UHGV virus genome: UHGV-0293664
DNA: 64,000 nucleotides
Source of the DNA: a virus
Strand: one strand, 5' to 3'
The notes below the pieces were generated by a model. That model was not told the origin of the DNA. It saw nothing but the letters and a program-made list of their open reading frames with translations, and searched no databases. The number at the start of each line of letters is the position of its first letter. Positions within the stretch are counted from its first letter, which is position 1. Shown here in pieces: positions 24,318-36,336 of this stretch. Position numbers and translations under genes: made by a program.

Positions 24318-24611
24318 TCAAGACTTTTTAGTCTTTCTTGGAGAGCTTTTTGTTGATCTTTTTCTTTTGTGGTAAATTCCAAGTGCAGCATTTTCTTGGG
24401 CACACGTTTTAACGGTTTTTAGATCAGAGCTTTCAGCTTTAGGTAGATTAAGCTCCCACCAACCCAACCAGTAAAGCTCTGATTCCGACAACTGCTCAGA
24501 TTCAGACTTCCGATACAAGGCTTGCATACCTCTGATGATATCGTCCAGAGGTGTATCGAATACAAAAGCTGTCTTATCAAATTTCTCTTTTGCAGGTTTC
24601 TTAGCCATCAA
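24318..24611 (-). CDS. hypothetical basic protein (97 aa)
   Basis: ORF; Lys/Arg-rich ends. Confidence 0.35.
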   Translation of the reverse strand: MMAKKPAKEKFDKTAFVFDTPLDDIIRGMQALYRKSESEQLSESELYWLGWWELNLPKAESSDLKTVKTCAQENAALGIYHKRKRSTKSSPRKTKKS

Positions 24612-25116
24612 GGTAACCCTCTATCCACGAAAAGTCAGTCTTCCATTCTGGAACTTTACTAAGCTCACGCCACTCTGCAAAGCAGTCTCGGTAATAGGCC
24701 TCTGCCATACCCTTGGTGATCTTATTCACCTTAGCCAACTGATTAACTGCCTGAGCATACTTTCCACGGATATTTGCTAACCCAGGATGCACAGATGTGT
24801 GACAATCTGGGCACAACGCTATCAGTCCGACAAGCCGGATCACTCCCTCTTCGAAAGTGTAAAGTTCATGACACTCCACTGGATGTTTGCTGCCTTTACC
24901 TCCGCACACCTCACAAGTGTAGTTAGCCTCTCTGTAGCACTTCTTACGGATCTTATCCCACTCACTCTTCTTCACAGCGTTTCGGAGGTTATTATACCAA
25001 GCTGTTTCTGGGATCAGTTGCACAATAAGCCTGCGTTCAGACTTCATTAAACGTCCGTCTTCCACGTGTTCTCCCTCATTCAAAGAAATGGGTGCGAGGG
25101 CAGGAACCTGCCTCAC
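24601..25116 (-). CDS. putative HNH endonuclease
   Basis: CEVCGG...ECHE...CPDCH Cys/His arrangement typical of HNH zinc-finger nucleases. Confidence 0.45.
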   Translation of the reverse strand: MRQVPALAPISLNEGEHVEDGRLMKSERRLIVQLIPETAWYNNLRNAVKKSEWDKIRKKCYREANYTCEVCGGKGSKHPVECHELYTFEEGVIRLVGLIALCPDCHTSVHPGLANIRGKYAQAVNQLAKVNKITKGMAEAYYRDCFAEWRELSKVPEWKTDFSWIEGYLDG

Positions 25117-25346: not shown

Positions 25347-25826
25347 TTAATCCAGTACTGTGCCTCCGGCTTTTCGGAAGACGTCCAGCATCTTCTCTAT
25401 GTTTTCTACACGCTGATCATACAGTTTACCAGCCCCCGGTGGTGGTGGGAAACTTGCCCAACGGCTACGGCATTTATAGATAGCTGAACGGATCCTTCCT
25501 TCATAAATGTCATCAAGGGCTTTACATTCGCGGATCAACTGTTTTGCTATGGCATCCTGACTTGCCGGACCAAAATCTCTTAAGCCAAGCTGCTTCATGT
25601 AATGCTTAGCGTATTTCTCCAGAATTTGGTATCTGCCAAATGCTGAAGAGGTAAGGCCTGGTCTTAATTTGACATAAATACCGGGATGCCTGCTGAGATC
25701 CTCTATGTATTTTCCACCAACAAGGATGTGGTACGAAGCATCTTCGCCACCATACCTGTCAGTACCTTCTGAGTGTGAAATCATCGAAAAAAATGCTCTC
25801 AATTGTACATTTTTATCTAGCTTCAT
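25347..25826 (-). CDS. endolysin, lambda R-type lytic transglycosylase
   Basis: HSEGT (catalytic Glu context) and SSAFGRYQ match the lambda-lysozyme family. Confidence 0.7.
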   Translation of the reverse strand: MKLDKNVQLRAFFSMISHSEGTDRYGGEDASYHILVGGKYIEDLSRHPGIYVKLRPGLTSSAFGRYQILEKYAKHYMKQLGLRDFGPASQDAIAKQLIRECKALDDIYEGRIRSAIYKCRSRWASFPPPPGAGKLYDQRVENIEKMLDVFRKAGGTVLD

Positions 25827-26587
25827 TTAAACCTCCGATTAAACCACTCTTCCAACGAATCATCATGTTTTGCATATTCTGCGGATTTTCTGACGCATAC
25901 AGCATCCCACCACTCCGTGTATTGCCCCAAATGATACCTTTTGCTGTTTTCAGCAATCTGAACTTGCCACTTGTCAGTATCGTGTCTCCATTTAACACCT
26001 GTACACCCAGATGTGTTATTAAGTTTTAGTATTTTGCCTTTATAAGTACCTGAAACTAGCTGTTTTCTTGCCTCTACAGCCTCATCTTTGGTCTTAAAGT
26101 ACCCAGCAAACCTATCTCCTTCGAGGGTGTTATATACTGCATACCATAAACCACATTTCTTATAAACGCCTAAGTTACCGTGCGGGTTATTTTTCGGGAG
26201 TAAATTATTTCTTATGCGGTCCTTGTTGTTATCACTGTAGGTGCCCATAGAAAGATTTTCTATATTATCCTGGCCTTTTATATCATTTAAATGCCTGACA
26301 AGAAAGTTTTTTGTTAAAGAGTTATAAAACATGTCGTAAATAATTCTATGACGCTTCTTATCACCACCTTTATGAGAGTTGATTATAACATACCCTTGTG
26401 CATCATTACAACCAGCTTTTGTGCCAGCTTTTATGAAGAGTTGATTTTTACCTCGGCCTCTATAATGACTCTTTGTCCAAACTAGCTCCCCATCTTTGTA
26501 CCAAAATGCAAAATTATCATTGAAGAAGAAATTAATCATTTTTTTTTTACTCTCCAATCTACTTATAGCATATCCGATCAACAACAC
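25823..26587 (-). CDS. HNH homing endonuclease with C-terminal AP2-like DNA-binding domain
   Basis: His/Asn-rich HNH-like core (HKGGDKKRHRIIYD...NIENL) plus C-terminal GVKWRHDTDKWQVQI...YHLGQY AP2-like module. Confidence 0.55.
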   Translation of the reverse strand: MLLIGYAISRLESKKKMINFFFNDNFAFWYKDGELVWTKSHYRGRGKNQLFIKAGTKAGCNDAQGYVIINSHKGGDKKRHRIIYDMFYNSLTKNFLVRHLNDIKGQDNIENLSMGTYSDNNKDRIRNNLLPKNNPHGNLGVYKKCGLWYAVYNTLEGDRFAGYFKTKDEAVEARKQLVSGTYKGKILKLNNTSGCTGVKWRHDTDKWQVQIAENSKRYHLGQYTEWWDAVCVRKSAEYAKHDDSLEEWFNRRFK

Positions 26588-26694: not shown

Positions 26695-27978
26695 TCATTC
26701 CAGCACCTCCCAAGTGTCTGGGTTAACATTTCGAACGCGGATACCGACAGGGAATTGGTAGTTGTTGTCTTCTGTCCTTGCTTGGTATTTGAAGGTGATA
26801 AACTTGCCGATCATTTCCTGCATCCTGTCATAGCTACGCTCCTCGTGCGTGCCTTTCATCTTCATTTTAACAACAACACCTTCCTTGTCAACACAGATAA
26901 GAACACCTTCATCATTCTTATCTTTCTCAACGTCAATAACCTTCACCTCTGCGTCGTTGAACTTTTTCCATTTCAATGCTTCAGATGTTCGCTGACCATA
27001 CTCATATTTACCACAGAAGTTACGCATAATGGTACCTTCATATCCCTCAGACATAAATATACCAACAGACTCTTCGCACCGATCAACTGTGTATGCAAGC
27101 TCTGCATCAACAACCTTAATATGATCAAGCATCAAAGAAGCAATAGCACCATTTGCCTCCATAAGATCCTTACAGCGCCCAGACTCTGTTTCAGGATCCC
27201 ACCACACCTTATCGCTAGGGATATCGAAAATATGATACTCTAAATCGTAGCTGCAGTACCCTCCGTAACGCAAATCATCACGAACAGGCTCAACATCAAC
27301 AGGAATGTCTACCTTGTTGAAGTTTTTGTATGTTGCTAAACCTGCCTTAATCGCAGCCTGACGGCGTTTTTTATCTGCCTTGTAGTCTTTATCGATCTCG
27401 GCCTGAATTTCTTCCTGTGTGCGCCACCGTTTAGCAAGAGACACTATTTTCTGCAGAGGTAGACCATGAATATAGAGCTCTCCGTCGAGCTGTTTAATCC
27501 CGGTGGTTAGGTGGAAAGAGCGAAGTTGCTCCAGAAGCTTCCCTTGAATAGGGTAGGACTTATTACCACGGGAAATAAATTTAGGCTCACCATTCTGGAA
27601 AACAACAAGTAGACGAAGGCCATCTAACTTACGCAAGATCCAGCAAGGTAATTTAAGTGCCTTGCCACGCTTCAGGTAGTCATGCACCAACATGGGTAGA
27701 AGATCAACACCTTGCTCACAATCTTCCATACTCTCCACGTACCCAAGTCGGACCTGTTTTTCCCACTTACTGATCGCTTCCAGCTCGGCCTGTTGTTCAG
27801 CTGTAGTCTCGTTGGCACGACCTACGTTCTTAGGTGTGCATACCGTCTCTTTGTACTGCAGTTTACCGTCAAGCTTTCCAAACTCTACGATAACCTTACT
27901 ACCATCTGTGAATACTTTCCATTGCTGGTAACTTCCATCTTTATTTAGTGCATAAAGTGTTGTTTTGATTTGATGCAT
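26695..27978 (-). CDS. ATP-dependent DNA ligase
   Basis: Motif I RKLDGLRL (KxDG), 427 aa. Confidence 0.8.
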   Translation of the reverse strand: MHQIKTTLYALNKDGSYQQWKVFTDGSKVIVEFGKLDGKLQYKETVCTPKNVGRANETTAEQQAELEAISKWEKQVRLGYVESMEDCEQGVDLLPMLVHDYLKRGKALKLPCWILRKLDGLRLLVVFQNGEPKFISRGNKSYPIQGKLLEQLRSFHLTTGIKQLDGELYIHGLPLQKIVSLAKRWRTQEEIQAEIDKDYKADKKRRQAAIKAGLATYKNFNKVDIPVDVEPVRDDLRYGGYCSYDLEYHIFDIPSDKVWWDPETESGRCKDLMEANGAIASLMLDHIKVVDAELAYTVDRCEESVGIFMSEGYEGTIMRNFCGKYEYGQRTSEALKWKKFNDAEVKVIDVEKDKNDEGVLICVDKEGVVVKMKMKGTHEERSYDRMQEMIGKFITFKYQARTEDNNYQFPVGIRVRNVNPDTWEVLE

Positions 27979-28572: not shown

Positions 28573-28605
28573 AACAAGTAAAGCCGGGTGATCCCGGCTA
28601 TGTTG

Positions 28606-29319
28606 TTAAATATACTCTGTTACATCCTTGAAGCTTGAAGGCTTCATGATCTTACCTTTACTGTCAAGGAATATGATAACTTTATTACCGTTGTAGAACT
28701 CTTCCTTAGCAACAAAACCTTCATATCGACCATCAAAGCGTCGCTCAAGATCTTTAATCTCCAACTCTACGAGTTGTTCAGCAGGCATATCTGCACTGGC
28801 ACCGTGTGAATACCGTAGATGGTTAATCTTTGCAAACTTGCTGTCATTCGATTTGAGAACCTTACGCATCATCCCGCACACATCGCCGCGAAGCTGGAAC
28901 AGCAAAGCTGTTGACAACTCCGCTAAGCGGTAAGCTGACGCTCTTTGCTTAGGTGTGTTTTTCGCAGCGATCAGGGTATCATAGAACTCACCGATCTTGA
29001 ACTTAAGGCCTCGTGGATTATCAAACAGGCTTGACCACTTTTCGTGATTGTCATTAACAAGATAAGCGGCATAACTTGTGACAACGTGAAGATCGCAGGC
29101 CTCTTTTAGCAGGTGATCTCCACCATCGCCTTTCTCCAGCTCTTCCAAAACTTCATTGAACTCTTCCTCAATGAAGCTAAGCTGTAATTCGAACGGTGTG
29201 TATGATTTTTTCACTTTAGCTGCCACACGGTTCCAGTTTTCCACCCAGTTGGCAGACCAAAGGTAGTTTTCAGGTTGGGACAGTTTTTCCAGGTTGTCAA
29301 TCAATTTGGTATTCAGCAT
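28606..29319 (-). CDS. putative MazG-like nucleotide pyrophosphohydrolase
   Basis: EEEFNEVLEELEKGD...HLLKEACDL resembles the MazG EExxE...D metal-binding helix pair; weak. Confidence 0.35.
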   Translation of the reverse strand: MLNTKLIDNLEKLSQPENYLWSANWVENWNRVAAKVKKSYTPFELQLSFIEEEFNEVLEELEKGDGGDHLLKEACDLHVVTSYAAYLVNDNHEKWSSLFDNPRGLKFKIGEFYDTLIAAKNTPKQRASAYRLAELSTALLFQLRGDVCGMMRKVLKSNDSKFAKINHLRYSHGASADMPAEQLVELEIKDLERRFDGRYEGFVAKEEFYNGNKVIIFLDSKGKIMKPSSFKDVTEYI

Positions 29320-29332
29320 TAAAGGTCTCCTT

Positions 29333-30094
29333 TTAAAGTTCCATAAAGTTTTCTACGATCTCAATGAATGTTTTATCAGAGAAAGCATCGACCGCCCCGT
29401 TAAACCAAACTGGGATGCCGCGATCCTCATATTGGTAAATATCACTACGTGAAATGCCATTCTCCCCCAGCTGCTGTGAGTCGTATTTGTTAACGATCAG
29501 CAGTTTGGTTCCCTTATTGCAGGCAGGGAATAGCTCCCAGTTAAAATTGATAACTGTGTTGGAACACCCTACAAGGATAACCATATCATTACTCGTAAGA
29601 GAAGTCAACAGGTCATACATGTCTGTATACTTCGGAGCTACTTCTCCGAAGAACACCACATTAGGCTTAACCCAGGTATACTTTCCTGCATCTACCTCAG
29701 AGTATCCAATGTCCTTAATGACGTTACTTCCTTCATCGTCCTCATAGACTATTTCTGGCAAATACCCGTGGACATGTAAAATATCTTCATGTTTTACACC
29801 AGCACGCTCCAGCAAATCATCTACATTGGTGGTAAGGTTGATCACACGACCAGACCAGCGGGAATACCACTCAGCGATCCGAAGATGTGCAAGGTTAGGA
29901 TCAACACTGCCCAGAGCTACACGACGTGCATTGTAAAAGTCATGCACCTTATAGTAGTTCTTGGCAAAGGTGTGGATGTTGCACACCTCATCGATGCTGA
30001 AATTCTCCCACATTGCAGTGCTACCAGATCGGAAAGTGGGAATACCAGATTCAGCGCTCAAACCCGCACCGGAGATAATAATAAGTCGTCGCAT
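29333..30094 (-). CDS. Sir2-family (sirtuin-like) protein lacking the zinc ribbon
   Basis: GAGLSAESGIPTFR, TTNVDDLLERAG, LHVHGY (catalytic His), VVFFGE, ILVGCS all match sirtuin motifs; no CxxC pairs. Confidence 0.65.
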   Translation of the reverse strand: MRRLIIISGAGLSAESGIPTFRSGSTAMWENFSIDEVCNIHTFAKNYYKVHDFYNARRVALGSVDPNLAHLRIAEWYSRWSGRVINLTTNVDDLLERAGVKHEDILHVHGYLPEIVYEDDEGSNVIKDIGYSEVDAGKYTWVKPNVVFFGEVAPKYTDMYDLLTSLTSNDMVILVGCSNTVINFNWELFPACNKGTKLLIVNKYDSQQLGENGISRSDIYQYEDRGIPVWFNGAVDAFSDKTFIEIVENFMEL

Positions 30095-30102
30095 AAGTGT
30101 CC

Positions 30103-30453
30103 TCAGTAGATGTTTTGTTTAATATCTATTCCAAACTTTTTAAACGAGTCAGCTGCAAGCATGAATTTACGAGCCGCTGATGGGTTAGAAGTATGCACGA
30201 AAATCTTCACGTTGTCAACTACAGGAGGCTTACCAAATACAAATTTTTCCTCCAACATAGATAGGCAATCGTACCCTTCGAACACCTCTCCAAGGTCGTT
30301 GTCCATGTGCCACTCAGAAACGCGTCTGTAGAGCTTTCTATTATCGTTAATAAAATCCATAAACTCGGAGGAATTCTTTAGCCAAATAGCGTCTGGTAGC
30401 CCATAATTTGACGGATCTCTCAAGTCATCCAGCCACACAATCAACTTCTTCAT
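30103..30453 (-). CDS. hypothetical protein (116 aa)
   Basis: ORF between Sir2 and the ligase-like gene. Confidence 0.4.
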   Translation of the reverse strand: MKKLIVWLDDLRDPSNYGLPDAIWLKNSSEFMDFINDNRKLYRRVSEWHMDNDLGEVFEGYDCLSMLEEKFVFGKPPVVDNVKIFVHTSNPSAARKFMLAADSFKKFGIDIKQNIY

Positions 30454-31406
30454 TGCATATAGTTCTCGTTGTGGAAATAGTAATCAAGTATCTCACGGCG
30501 TTCCTGCTCTAGGAGGCAGTTCCATACATCCTCTGTGTAGTTGTTACGAATGAAGTTTACCATGCCGTAAAACTCTTCGTCAACACGTTTAAAGATATCA
30601 TCATCCCAAATCTTCCAAGCTTTACCTCTCATTACGGCCTTCCGTGCCAGATAGTATGGAGACTTAATCTTCAGCTGCAGATCATAAGGGTAGTAAGGCT
30701 TACGAATCATATACCCTTCACCTCTTGTTTCTGCAGCTAATTCTTTTGCATAACTGAACGGAATTTCACGCACAGTGTGAGGACGTTTTGCACCAAGGTA
30801 TTTGGCAATCCCGTCTAGAGCTGCTTCTGGTAGCATTATTCCAGAATCATTATATCTGCAACCTATCAAATATGCGCCATGATCTTCCTGAACAATATGC
30901 GGATCTGAAGGGTGACAAATTTCAAACATGAATGTCATGTTTTCATTACCCATAACTTTCTTGATAAGATCTAAATTACCACATTGCTCATGGATGGTTT
31001 CCTTTGCGAGGTCACAATATGGAGAATCAAGAGATCCGGTTGTTGAGAACAATAGTTCACCTTTATGAGATGATACCACACCAAGGAATCCGTTCTTTTT
31101 CTCTACCGCCGTCACAAGCTTATTGTCAGGCAGGTTGGTGGAGTTTTCTCCTAAGTTAAACACTTTTGTGAAGGGCCATGCCACAACATTTCCTTCATTA
31201 CCGACAACAATGCCTCGACACTCCAGTAAACGAGGGGACAAATGCCATAGATTGTTGTAAAATACTTTTCTGGCATATTTATAGATCTTTAACCCAAGAT
31301 CTGGGTAATATCTACTGGTTACAAGACCTTTGTCAACTAGGTCGTCTGCATTAAAATACTTCATCATACGTTCCTCATTTGTCATTTTGTTCCACAATCT
31401 TCCCAC
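30450..31406 (-). CDS. putative RNA ligase (covalent nucleotidyltransferase)
   Basis: Motif I EKKNGF (KxNG), motif IV EGYMIRK, motif V LKIKS; distinct from the DNA ligase at 26695. Confidence 0.5.
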   Translation of the reverse strand: MGRLWNKMTNEERMMKYFNADDLVDKGLVTSRYYPDLGLKIYKYARKVFYNNLWHLSPRLLECRGIVVGNEGNVVAWPFTKVFNLGENSTNLPDNKLVTAVEKKNGFLGVVSSHKGELLFSTTGSLDSPYCDLAKETIHEQCGNLDLIKKVMGNENMTFMFEICHPSDPHIVQEDHGAYLIGCRYNDSGIMLPEAALDGIAKYLGAKRPHTVREIPFSYAKELAAETRGEGYMIRKPYYPYDLQLKIKSPYYLARKAVMRGKAWKIWDDDIFKRVDEEFYGMVNFIRNNYTEDVWNCLLEQERREILDYYFHNENYMQ

Positions 31407-31428
31407 ATAAACAGCATCATGTCAACAC

Positions 31429-31457
31429 TTGAAATGTTCAAAAGAACACGATATACT
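31429..31457 (+). promoter_or_regulatory. sigma70-like promoter
   Basis: TTGAAA (31429-31434), 17-nt spacer, TATACT (31452-31457) upstream of the kinase gene. Confidence 0.4.
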
Positions 31458-31485
31458 ATCGTTGAAATTAAAACGGAGGATTACT

Positions 31486-31896
31486 ATGTCTAAAATGCTA
31501 TATATCGTGCGTGGTCTACCAGGGTCTGGCAAATCAACACTGGCAAATGCGCTATCTTTAGAAGGTCTGTATCCACATTTTGAGAACGACATGTTCTGGT
31601 ACGACGATGATGGAAATTACAACTGGGATGCAAGTAAAGTAACACTTGCAGCAAAATGGTGCAAAGATAACGTAGAAGATATGATGCGTATGGGATACGA
31701 CCGTATCGTGGTAAGTAATACGTTTACAAAAGAAAAATATGTGCAAGAATATATTGACATGGCGATCAGTCATGGGTATAGTTATACCGTGATCGTGGTT
31801 GAAAACCGCCATGGTAATAAAAGCATTCATGATGTTCCAGACAGGGTTGTGGATCGTATGGAACGCCAGCTTAAAAACTGCATTAAACTTAAATGA
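31486..31896 (+). CDS. polynucleotide 5'-kinase-like P-loop protein
   Basis: GLPGSGKSTLANAL P-loop and VVSNTFT resemble the T4 Pnk kinase domain; start placed at the SD-preceded ATG (31486), not the longer track ORF. Confidence 0.55.
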   Translation: MSKMLYIVRGLPGSGKSTLANALSLEGLYPHFENDMFWYDDDGNYNWDASKVTLAAKWCKDNVEDMMRMGYDRIVVSNTFTKEKYVQEYIDMAISHGYSYTVIVVENRHGNKSIHDVPDRVVDRMERQLKNCIKLK

Positions 31897-31903
31897 GGAA
31901 TGT

Positions 31904-32458
31904 ATGAAATACTTTGTAACAAGCGACACACACTTTCTCCACCAGCGGGTCATGGAGTTCGACTCATGTCAAAAACACAGATCTCAGTATGATCACAATC
32001 TTGACAGTATGAATGCGGGAATCATCACCAAGTGGAACTCTGTTGTGTCACCTGCAGACACTGTGTTCCACTTGGGAGATATTGCGTGCACTAATGATAA
32101 GAATATCAACAACTTACTTCCAGATATTCTAAATATGTTGAACGGACATATTATTCTTGTTCGTGGCAACCATGACACAAGGACGACTGTCAGAATTATG
32201 AAAGAGTTCGGTCATGAGGTTGTAGATTATTACGAGCTTCGCCACAACAAGAATTTGATCTGTATGAGCCATTACCAGTTTGCAAAGTGGAACAGAAAGC
32301 CTCACGGATCAGTCCAACTGTTCGGTCATGCTCACGGAACCACACAGCAGTTGTTTGGCAGGCAGTTTGATGTCGGTTGGGATGTGTGGGGGAGACTCTT
32401 ACCATTAGAAGAGGCATACCGTATTGCAATGAGTCTTGCTATTGACAGCGGGGAGTAA
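31904..32458 (+). CDS. calcineurin-like metallophosphoesterase
   Basis: SDTHF, HLGDIACTND, VRGNHD binuclear-metal motifs; start placed at ATG 31904. Confidence 0.6.
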   Translation: MKYFVTSDTHFLHQRVMEFDSCQKHRSQYDHNLDSMNAGIITKWNSVVSPADTVFHLGDIACTNDKNINNLLPDILNMLNGHIILVRGNHDTRTTVRIMKEFGHEVVDYYELRHNKNLICMSHYQFAKWNRKPHGSVQLFGHAHGTTQQLFGRQFDVGWDVWGRLLPLEEAYRIAMSLAIDSGE

Positions 32459-35396: not shown

Positions 35397-35471
35397 GCCC
35401 TGTTAGCTTAGTGGATAAAGCAGCGGCCTTCTAAGCCGTTGACACTGGTTCGAGTCCAGTACGGGGTGCCA
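35397..35471 (+). tRNA. tRNA-Arg (anticodon UCU)
   Basis: Hand-folded cloverleaf: acceptor GCCCTGT/ACGGGGT (two G-U), D-stem GCTT/AAGC, anticodon loop CTTCTAA, T-arm ACTGG-TTCGAGT-CCAGT, CCA encoded. Confidence 0.65.
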
Positions 35472-35601
35472 AGTTCTTTTTAATGTAGCTTACTTTAGCA
35501 GAGTAAATCTTCGGCAAGTGGCGGTAACCACTTTACCGATACCTCATAGTTAGTGGTGAGAACACTAGCTATTTTAAAAAGAATTTAAATATTAGTATTT
35601 A

Positions 35602-35689
35602 GGTGAGTTAATTCCGTAGGGGTAGCGGGGCAGACTGTAAATCTGTTATCATTGCGATTCGGGTGGTTCGACTCCATCACTCACCACCA
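35602..35689 (+). tRNA. tRNA-Tyr (anticodon GUA), long variable arm
   Basis: Acceptor GGTGAGT/ACTCACC, anticodon arm GCAGA-CTGTAAA-TCTGT, long variable arm, T-loop TTCGACT, CCA encoded. Confidence 0.65.
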
Positions 35690-35803
35690 AATTTATATTT
35701 TTAAATGCATAAATCATACAGATAATGGCATTGATATTTATCGTCGTTTATACTAGTCACTAACTGCTCGAAAATCAGTGTCATTATCAGTATTGTTTAT
35801 AAA

Positions 35804-35894
35804 AGAGGGTAGGGAGCAATGGTGCTCAAGCGGTCTTGAAAACCGTCCCGTTGAGGATGACTCGATGATGGTTCGATTCCATTATCCTCTGCCA
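35804..35894 (+). tRNA. tRNA-Ser (anticodon UGA), class II
   Basis: Acceptor AGAGGGT/ATCCTCT, anticodon loop CTTGAAA, long variable arm, T-loop TTCGATT, CCA encoded. Confidence 0.6.
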
Positions 35895-35992
35895 TATTGT
35901 TGACCTTGTAATTAAGCGAAAGCCGGAAGCAGAACCGGATTATCAAATGTTACAGTCGTCATCGCCGACTAGCAACATGGTCAACATACTGA

Positions 35993-36089
35993 GCTAGGTA
36001 AGCCCTTTGGCAAGGGCGAGGATTTTTAATCCTGAAAATAGACGAGGTAGTCGTTGAATACATAGGTGGTTCGATTCCATCACCTAGCA
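35993..36089 (+). tRNA. atypical tRNA-like gene (97 nt; anticodon uncertain, possibly UUU)
   Basis: Perfect 7-bp acceptor GCTAGGT/ACCTAGC, D-stem GCCC/GGGC, T-arm GGTGG-TTCGATT-CCATC, but only a 4-bp anticodon stem AGGA/TCCT (loop TTTTTAA), a 30-nt extra region and no full CCA. Confidence 0.45.
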
Positions 36090-36096
36090 CCTTTTT

Positions 36097-36172
36097 GCTG
36101 ATGTAGCACAATTGGTAGTGCAATTGATTTGTAATCAATAGGTTGCAGGTTCGAGTCCTGCTATCAGCACCA
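36097..36172 (+). tRNA. tRNA-Thr (anticodon UGU)
   Basis: Acceptor GCTGATG/TATCAGC, D-stem GCAC/GTGC, anticodon arm ATTGA-TTTGTAA-TCAAT, T-arm GCAGG-TTCGAGT-CCTGC, CCA. Confidence 0.7.
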
Positions 36173-36173
36173 T

Positions 36174-36248
36174 GGCCCTGTAGCTGGAAGGTTCAAGCAA
36201 GCGACTCATAATCGCCAGACGGTGGTTCAATTCCACCCAGGGCCACCA
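36174..36248 (+). tRNA. tRNA-Met (anticodon CAU; initiator, elongator or Ile2 not distinguishable)
   Basis: Acceptor GGCCCTG/CAGGGCC, anticodon loop CTCATAA, T-arm GGTGG-TTCAATT-CCACC, CCA. Confidence 0.65.
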
Positions 36249-36259
36249 AATAATAAATA

Positions 36260-36336
36260 CTCCGCGTAGCTCAGCTTGGTAGAGCGCCTGATTTGGGATC
36301 AGGAGGTCGAGTGTTCGAATCACTCCGTGGAGACCA
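36260..36336 (+). tRNA. tRNA-Pro (anticodon UGG)
   Basis: Acceptor CTCCGCG/CGTGGAG, D-arm GCTC-AGCTTGGTA-GAGC, anticodon arm CCTGA-TTTGGGA-TCAGG, T-arm GAGTG-TTCGAAT-CACTC, CCA. Confidence 0.7.

Follow-up and report, generated by a model that had tools for sequence, protein, structure and literature searches.

RNA repair is the classic answer of phages to bacterial anticodon nucleases, and defences that cut tRNA are now known to be common, including PrrC, RloC, PARIS, the retron-associated PtuAB and OLD. In phage T4, the end-healing enzyme Pnkp and the RNA ligase Rnl1 act together against PrrC. In bacteria, the binuclear metallophosphoesterase of C. thermocellum Pnkp (CthPnkp) serves end healing as a 2',3'-cyclic phosphodiesterase and phosphatase (PMC2190708), and in the Pnkp1-Rnl-Hen1 RNA repair system the ligase is a separate polypeptide (PMC4411300). 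Among phages, Iyer, Burroughs, Anantharaman and Aravind (2022, Viruses 14:1977, PMC9503650) described a sirtuin-centred RNA-repair neighbourhood, 'type 2', with Escherichia phage V5 and Proteus phage Mydo as prototypes; the RNA-repair prediction for the V5 neighbourhood, in which MazG is listed, is given in their section 3.7.3, and the sirtuin was proposed to act on 2'-phosphates like KptA/Tpt1. Here we describe a computational analysis of the corresponding cluster of six genes, located at positions 28606-32458 of a 64,000-nucleotide stretch (the window) of the virus genome UHGV-0293664.

We consider it probable that this cluster is a phage RNA healing-and-sealing module. Its core consists of an Rnl1-family ATP-dependent RNA ligase, a stand-alone Pnk-like P-loop kinase and a binuclear metallophosphoesterase (MPE), and it is accompanied by a Zn-less sirtuin (Sir2), a cREC domain protein and a MazG-like nucleotide pyrophosphohydrolase. 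A first-pass annotation of the sequence had already interpreted ligase, kinase and phosphoesterase as a set for healing and sealing cleaved tRNA, and the computational evidence, which comprises family assignments, intact catalytic motifs, predicted folds, operon structure, synteny and gene fusions, lends support to this interpretation. The window belongs to an rV5-like E. coli phage, with 97% identity to published Vequintavirus genomes in which these functions are annotated. The 3.1-kb region of the cluster shows 90-97.5% identity to 120 phage records, nearly all from Vequintavirus (rV5-like) coliphages, whose annotations already give RNA ligase, Sir2 deacetylase, phosphoesterase and polynucleotide kinase. 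All proteins of the six genes gave only sub-threshold NCBIfam matches; because of the homology E-values reported below and the conserved synteny, chance is out of the question.

The association of the three core genes was examined in a ligase-centred sample of 80 IMG/VR loci (35-88% identity), collected by a pattern scan with the ligase alignment and taken with 6-kb flanks, in which partners were sought in six-frame open reading frames (ORFs) with iterated hidden Markov models (HMMs); the counts rest on stop-to-stop ORFs and purpose-built family HMMs, so that very divergent partners may be missed. The 6-kb flanks of the ligase contain a kinase homologue in 68/80 loci, an MPE in 62/80 and an ATP-dependent DNA ligase in 26/80; MazG-like, Sir2 and cREC genes lie near the ligase in 13/80, 11/80 and 10/80 loci, respectively. 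When the ligases were collapsed at 70% identity, 34 clusters were obtained, with the kinase in 29, the MPE in 30 and both in 27 of them. In 67 of the 68 loci the kinase shares the strand of the ligase, the median distance between the two being 0 bp, and the MPE lies at most 1.5 kb from the ligase in 60 of 62. Moreover, kinase and ligase form a single ORF in 12 loci, and the N-terminal part of the 737-position profile phrog_8238 matches the kinase, its C-terminal part the ligase. Because the three genes co-occur in 27 of the 34 clusters, mostly on the same strand and within 1.5 kb, and because two of them are found fused, a functional linkage is indicated, which we regard as strong evidence, drawn from gene context, that ligase, kinase and MPE would work together. 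Sir2, cREC and MazG, found with the ligase in only 10-13 of the 80 loci, are therefore taken as a lineage-specific add-on. The kinase-MPE pair is inverted relative to the ligase only in the window and its closest relative, L001.

The kinase-ligase fusions (L036, L037, L041, L043-L047, L050-L053) are about 430 amino acids long, and no 2H domain was detected in these ORFs. The fusion loci carry no MPE within 6 kb, and many have an Rv2179c-like 3'-5' exoribonuclease instead. Several further genes recur around the triad in other phages: NAD+ (nicotinamide adenine dinucleotide) salvage genes lie within 6 kb of it in L002-L066 (NAMPT/NAPRTase-like in 36/80 loci, phosphoribosyl pyrophosphate synthetase in 32/80), an HD_4 domain protein is found in 20/80 loci, and a Macro domain protein, never alongside Sir2, in 17/80. 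These NAD+ salvage, Macro, HD and exoribonuclease neighbours are absent from the window.

The ligase is the first gene of the minus-strand operon. Its ORF (30450-31406) runs to a GTG at 31406; however, the true start is probably the ATG at 31385, because the database protein P0001, which is 100% identical, has 311 amino acids, and the gene is accordingly placed at 30450..31385 (minus strand, 311 amino acids). The ligase-like motifs reported in the first-pass annotation, KxNG, EGYMIRK and LKIKS, were all recovered, at 31086-31100 (as KKNG), 30699-30719 and 30660-30674. The family searches that it had suggested placed the protein in RNA_lig_T4_1 (PF09511; E 7.8e-15, 55.8 bits, cut-off 28.3), and the protein also matches phrog_562 at 5e-66. 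Eleven residues show no variation across 61 homologues with 41-50% identity (R57, K74, F76, K96, N98, G99, E155, E223, G224, K239, and K241), and K96 in the KKNG motif is the predicted lysine nucleophile. The family profile aligns to residues 29-249 of T4 Rnl1 (E 1.1e-14) with the essential residues matched, the invariant positions falling on T4 Rnl1 R54, K75, F77, K99, G102, E159, E227, G228, K240 and K242. The T4 RnlA equivalog model TIGR02308 scored the ligase at 37.8 bits, far under its cut-off of 242, and the C-terminal stretch of about 65 residues has no match to the T4 Rnl1 C-domain, as the profile alignment stops at residue 249.

A single-sequence phmmer search against the PDB gave no match for the ligase, so that the profile and a structure model were needed. 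The AlphaFold model (predicted local distance difference test, pLDDT, 92.3) had its top Foldseek matches, at 1e-11 to 1e-13, in the ligase domains of fungal Trl1 and in T4 Rnl1 and Rnl3 (among the Trl1 domains, 9qw7 at 9.7e-13, and 6n0t, 8rbj and 6n67 at 1e-10 to 1e-11). Matches to Rnl2, Rnl5 and DNA ligases were far weaker, with DNA ligases at about 3e-5 or worse, and none of the 50 best matches listed was a capping enzyme. The fold does not separate Trl1-like from Rnl1-like; sequence favours Rnl1, and no Trl1 chain was found with the family profile at E values up to 10. That the protein might instead be a DNA ligase or a capping-enzyme paralogue, a doubt raised beforehand, is rejected by the Rnl1 profile, the structure matches and the presence of a separate ATP-dependent DNA ligase gene, which family scans located at 26695-27978. 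Judged by its profile and residues, the protein belongs to the Rnl1 family of RNA ligases, within a subfamily that is short and distinct, and is predicted to have ligase activity. This subfamily has 1471 database homologues, and only two metagenome-assembled contigs carry it among 185,579 representative prokaryote genomes; it is essentially phage-restricted.

The kinase (31486..31896, plus strand) has 136 amino acids and carries the P-loop GLPGSGKST. It matches Pfam AAA_33 at 2.7e-10 and phrog_505, a polynucleotide kinase family, at 3e-10, and G10, G15, K16, T18 and D35 are invariant in 58 homologues. D35 corresponds to the general-base Asp of the characterized enzymes (T4 D35, Cth D38) by position, rather than by structural alignment. 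The AlphaFold model (pLDDT 91.9) has its best PDB matches in CthPnk (4jt2, 4gp6, 4mde; template modelling (TM) scores 0.74-0.79), followed by T4 Pnk (2ia5, 1ly1; TM 0.72-0.75) and then by PSTK and mammalian PNKP; the structural E-values are modest (3.5e-6 and weaker), with other small P-loop kinases close behind. A single-sequence phmmer search of the kinase against the PDB returned a borderline P-loop match only (1zp6, E 0.088), so that the structure model was required here as well. The kinase is predicted to be a 5'-OH polynucleotide kinase, as its modelled fold suggests. It corresponds to the kinase domain alone and has no HAD phosphatase domain (DxDxT), and for this reason the GenBank label '3'-phosphatase, 5'-polynucleotide kinase' given to relatives is over-annotated.

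The MPE gene (31904..32458, plus strand, 184 amino acids) starts 7 bp past the kinase gene. As noted in the first-pass annotation, the phosphatase of this set is of the calcineurin type rather than the HAD type and is encoded separately from the kinase. All of its motifs were found (SDTHF, LGDIA, GNHD, MSHY, and GHAHG), which keeps all five motifs of the binuclear centre (DxH, GD, GNH[DE], H, GHxH); D8, H10, G58, D59, G88, N89, H90, H123, G141, H142 and H144 are invariant in 33 orthologues. The protein matches Pfam Metallophos_2 and Metallophos above their cut-offs and phrog_547 at 2e-51. Searched against the PDB, its profile matched Aquifex aq_1665 at 1.6e-23 and, more weakly, GpdQ and a COG0622 esterase, with non-significant E-values for YfcE (0.11) and Rv0805 (0.67); PPP protein phosphatases, lambda phosphatase and CthPnkp were not found in this search. 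A generic Ser/Thr protein phosphatase of the PPP type had been considered as the other possible identity of the protein, and this is rejected, since the signatures GDxHG, GDxVDRG and GNHE are lacking and the profile matches phosphodiesterase-type enzymes. The MPE is thus a small phosphodiesterase-type enzyme, predicted by analogy to act as a 2',3'-cyclic phosphodiesterase and 3'-phosphatase in end healing. This function is plausible because the CthPnkp metallophosphoesterase heals 2',3'-cyclic phosphate ends, and for the same reason the idea of a healing enzyme of the calcineurin type already has a precedent (PMC2190708).

The first-pass annotation described the gene set as dispersed, which is wrong: according to the ORF listing and family scans, the six genes are contiguous and arranged in two divergent transcription units, with gaps of at most 13 bp or overlaps between neighbours inside each unit. 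The divergent placement of the ligase relative to the kinase and MPE was correctly recognized, as a minus-strand and a plus-strand unit about 100 bp apart. Every gene it named is present; the cREC gene had been left unnamed and the MazG-like member of the operon had been missed. On the minus strand, the ligase gene is followed by cREC (30103..30453, 116 amino acids), whose first 4 bp are also the last 4 bp of the ligase gene, then by the sirtuin gene (29333..30094, 253 amino acids) and the MazG-like gene (28606..29319, 237 amino acids), which is the last of the operon; the gaps to Sir2 and MazG are 8-13 bp. A terminator-like hairpin at 28582..28599 (minus strand) ends this ligase-cREC-Sir2-MazG unit, and the annotation of phage Gotham places a terminator at the equivalent site. 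On the plus strand, a sigma-70-like promoter (TTGAAA, 17-nt spacer, TATACT; a consensus match only) lies upstream of the kinase-MPE pair at 31429..31457, where phage Gotham also has an annotated promoter, and a GGAGG ribosome-binding site (31476-31480, plus strand) precedes the kinase gene.

The sirtuin (class III-like) matches Pfam SIR2 (PF02146) at 5.5e-27 with 95.3 bits, and in the PDB it comes closest to SIRT5 and CobB (about 5e-21). The catalytic His109, TTNVDD, the GAG motif and VGCS are conserved, and the equivalents of SIRT5 Tyr102/Arg105 are kept in FYNARR. Its description as Zn-less holds, as no Cys of a Cys4 zinc module was found between H109 and VVFFGE in the sirtuin or its 8 orthologues (9 sequences). 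Sir2, cREC, MazG, the ligase and the MPE were also screened with PADLOC, and none of them matched a defence-type model. A defence-style NADase effector was considered for the sirtuin and rejected, since it matched none of the defence-type Sir2 models in PADLOC. In three related loci (L005, L008, L012), the N-terminal GAG segment of the sirtuin lies outside the reading frame or ORF of the remaining protein, and the gene may be split, interrupted or decaying there.

The cREC protein matches PF20274 at 1.8e-14 (54.6 bits, cut-off 27) and has a receiver-type acidic site, with D9, D10, D51-N-D53, S89 and K96 invariant and T88 kept in 7 of 8 sequences; its profile found no homologue with a solved structure. 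cREC has been defined as a predicted cyclic-phosphate-processing domain (PMC7824862), and its catalysis is a prediction of the literature (PMC7824862, PMC9503650). The MazG-like protein matches phrog_671 at 4e-22 and conserves E52, E53, E56 and D76, and no Pfam or NCBIfam match was found for it.

In L002-type phages of about 146 kb, the order on one strand is MPE, ligase, cREC, kinase, Sir2 and DNA ligase, so that cREC and Sir2 are interleaved with the core. T5-like phages form the largest Sir2 group, and the T5 sirtuin is 58% identical to that of the window. In T5 (L171, AY543070 56447-58094), the gene third downstream of the Sir2-like T5.102 is T5.105, whose product matches the 'Swiss army knife RNA repair' phosphatase HAD_SAK_2 at 4e-20; the linkage of Sir2 and HAD_SAK_2 is kept in 24 of 54 Sir2-centred loci, all T5-like. 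Read from gene order, this is a second, independent association of the sirtuin clade with a putative RNA end-processing enzyme. Near distant cREC homologues, a Thg1-like gene (tRNA-His guanylyltransferase family) was observed in L096, L100 and L101, with the assignment checked on the L100 copy alone (PF04446, 1.4e-22); this neighbour is another putative link of cREC to tRNA repair.

For the module we infer the following substrates, order of steps and tRNA target, together with any role of Sir2, cREC and MazG. The first step would be the nicking of a tRNA, of the host or the phage, by a host ribonuclease that leaves a 2',3'-cyclic phosphate and a 5'-OH; an anticodon nuclease of the PrrC/RloC/colicin type is the most plausible candidate. 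The MPE would open the cyclic phosphate and then remove the phosphate to give a 3'-OH, while the Pnk-like kinase would phosphorylate the 5'-OH; the Rnl1-type ligase would then self-adenylylate on K96, pass adenosine monophosphate (AMP) to the 5'-phosphate and seal the break. Since Sir2 and cREC are missing from most phages that have the triad, the MPE presumably finishes 3' healing alone. In rV5-like phages and the relatives of about 146 kb, the core is joined in one operon with cREC, the Zn-less sirtuin and the MazG-like pyrophosphatase, and these may form an accessory branch, which handles 2'-phosphate ends via NAD+ or does something unrelated. Following Iyer et al. (2022), such a branch would process 2'-phosphate ends with NAD+ and clear the ADP-ribose by-products. 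That the sirtuin is an NAD+-using remover of RNA 2'-phosphates like Tpt1/KptA, and cREC a cyclic phosphodiesterase, is in our view a rather doubtful proposition; by analogy with SIRT5, where they bind anionic acyl groups, the Tyr102/Arg105 equivalents could hold the 2'-phosphate in the phage sirtuin. If it were true, a branch for 2'-phosphate repair like that of yeast, but made up wholly of non-homologous enzymes, would operate in rV5-like phages, and removal of the ADP-ribose by-product would fall to the MazG-like protein.

Several observations weigh against a healing-and-sealing module directed at tRNA. In the enzymes themselves, the kinase has no Arg three residues past D35 (T4 R38, Cth R41), the residue at position 38 being Trp; R108 and R128 are nearly invariant and are candidate substitutes. 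In the ligase, a threonine occupies the position equivalent to T4 Rnl1 K119, and about 65 helical residues replace the C-terminal tRNA-specificity domain of T4 Rnl1 (residues ~255-374). The MPE family is small and uncharacterised, its nearest structure is the hypothetical protein aq_1665, and in the profile search against the PDB it has no sequence kinship to the CthPnkp phosphatase or lambda phosphatase. As for gene context, most loci with the core triad have no Sir2, cREC or MazG; conversely, this ligase is within 6 kb in only 12 of 35 cREC-centred loci and in only about 13 of 54 Sir2-centred ones. The cREC-centred loci without this ligase have no shared partner; other RNA ligase families were not searched for in these or in the corresponding Sir2-centred loci. 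Proximity to tRNA genes is not conserved, as tRNA genes are absent from the 6-kb surroundings in 32 out of 42 related loci, and the DNA ligase near 26 of the 80 loci makes DNA ends a possible second substrate. Finally, no experimental study of the six proteins, biochemical or genetic and including the rV5/Vequintavirus genes, was found in the literature.

Three other explanations each fit some of these data. The module might serve the RNA of the phage itself, either in tRNA maturation and quality control or in the repair of phage transcripts damaged by RNases. The enzymology would be identical, and a cluster of seven tRNA genes, including an unusual 99-nt tRNA-Lys(UUU), lies 2.9 kb off; however, the related loci mostly lack tRNA genes nearby (the 32 of 42 noted above), the cluster was not found to encode an endonuclease that cuts tRNA, and the homologous T4 enzymes have counter-defence as their classical role, so that we consider this explanation unlikely. 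It is also conceivable that kinase and MPE heal DNA ends (nicks with 5'-OH and 3'-phosphate) for the DNA ligase, and that the RNA-ligase homologue does something else, such as tail-fibre attachment. T4 Pnkp also acts on DNA, T4 gp63 has a tail-fibre attachment function, and phrog_562, which the ligase matches, is labelled T4 gp63 'tail fiber attachment'; the DNA ligase gene is within 6 kb in 26/80 loci, and it abuts Sir2 in the L002-type phages. Nevertheless, the fusion partner of the kinase in 12 loci is the RNA ligase and not the DNA ligase, the kinase directly adjoins the RNA ligase in most others, 54/80 loci have no DNA ligase nearby, and the invariance of all catalytic residues argues that the RNA ligase is active and not a structural chaperone, all of which makes this explanation quite improbable.

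The last of the three holds that these are independent genes of an early-gene accessory or anti-defence island, in which Sir2, cREC and MazG stand beside the ligase by coincidence and target NAD+-derived, ADP-ribose-derived or cyclic-nucleotide immune signals, or host proteins in the manner of a CobB-like deacylase. The absence of the ligase-kinase-MPE set from about 41 of the 54 Sir2-centred and 23 of the 35 cREC-centred loci is in line with it, as are the close relation of the sirtuin to the SIRT5/CobB deacylases, with their Tyr and Arg acyl-binding residues, and the NAD+ salvage, Macro and HD genes that often lie near the triad elsewhere, suggesting clustered counter-defence functions. It is at odds with the interleaving of cREC and Sir2 with ligase and kinase in a tight, co-directional operon in several lineages and with the T5 Sir2 of the same clade, which is also linked to an RNA-repair-type phosphatase; for the core triad, near-universal adjacency and the fusions contradict independence. 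We give this explanation little credence. All three explain the fusions and interleaved operons less well than an RNA healing-and-sealing module, which we retain as the probable reading.

The tRNA cluster mentioned above (35397..36336, plus strand) is context outside the conserved module. The first-pass annotation placed seven tRNAs about 3 kb away, in agreement with the seven found here (six by ARAGORN and one by Rfam), which begin 2.9 kb past the MPE gene: Arg UCU, Tyr GUA, Ser UGA, Lys UUU, Thr UGU, CAU, and Pro UGG. The tRNA-Tyr (GUA, encoded CCA) at 35602-35686 (plus strand) was found by Rfam only, at 39 bits, and is missed by ARAGORN; the spacing from tRNA-Arg to tRNA-Tyr is 130 nt in the window versus 4 nt in Bas52. 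For the 99-nt tRNA at 35993-36091 (plus strand), ARAGORN reads a 4-base anticodon; when folded, it has the anticodon loop UU-UUU-AA of a tRNA-Lys(UUU), with a D stem of 6 bp and roughly 29 nt in the extra arm, and its orthologue in Bas52 is annotated as tRNA-Lys. Because PrrC and PARIS both target tRNA-Lys(UUU), this tRNA could be a nuclease-resistant substitute. On the other side of the cluster, an HNH_3 homing-endonuclease-like ORF lies at 25823-26587 (minus strand) between the endolysin and DNA ligase genes, with an unassigned Cys-rich ORF near it at 24601-25116; the Bas52 counterparts are annotated as putative homing endonucleases.

Compared with the described systems, the cluster shares with T4 Pnkp plus Rnl1 the logic of a 5'-kinase, 3' healing and an Rnl1-family ligase; the adenylyltransferase domain of the ligase aligns to T4 Rnl1, and the kinase fold is near T4 Pnk. 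It differs in that the MPE is on its own gene, where T4 has a HAD (DxDxT) domain fused to the kinase, in that the ligase lacks the T4 Rnl1 C-terminal domain, and in the extra Sir2, cREC and MazG genes. CthPnkp, with Hen1, likewise combines a Pnk-clade kinase, a binuclear metallophosphoesterase and an ATP-dependent ligase (PMC2190708). Unlike in CthPnkp and Pnkp1-Rnl-Hen1, the phage activities are on three separate small proteins; the phage MPE stands outside the lambda-phosphatase clade, the phage ligase is of the Rnl1 type, and the phage cluster has no Hen1 methyltransferase. With regard to fungal and plant Trl1 plus Tpt1, the ligase model matches the Trl1 ligase domains as well as T4 Rnl1, and the logic would be mirrored if cREC were a cyclic phosphodiesterase and Sir2 an NAD+-dependent 2'-phosphate remover. 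However, the ligase has no sequence-level match to Trl1, the domains are on separate genes, and the cluster has neither a 2H phosphodiesterase nor a KptA/Tpt1 homologue.

The closest counterpart is the type 2 neighbourhood of phage V5, where the set is identical (sirtuin, T4-like tRNA ligase, cREC, nucleotide kinase, MazG-superfamily pyrophosphatase, and calcineurin-like phosphoesterase) and nothing essential differs, all six genes being present in 28606-32458. GenBank records already carry annotations of the cluster, and as a prediction for this phage group it is already in print (PMC9503650). The phosphoesterase is called 'occasional' there, whereas in the ligase-centred sample the kinase and MPE are constant and Sir2, cREC and MazG are occasional. 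What the present analysis adds is that this ligase subfamily has its constant partners in the kinase and MPE and not in Sir2 and cREC, that kinase and ligase are fused in some phages, that the MPE lies outside the CthPnkp/lambda clade, and that the ligase subfamily is essentially confined to phages. Should the sirtuin and cREC act on RNA ends, this would be new sirtuin chemistry, a hypothesis already in print (Iyer et al. 2022). The module could explain why phages differ in their sensitivity to tRNA-cutting defences, and it could yield compact RNA end-healing and sealing enzymes as tools. Set beside these systems, the cluster appears as a widespread, phage-restricted version of the T4 solution, built from three small separate enzymes.

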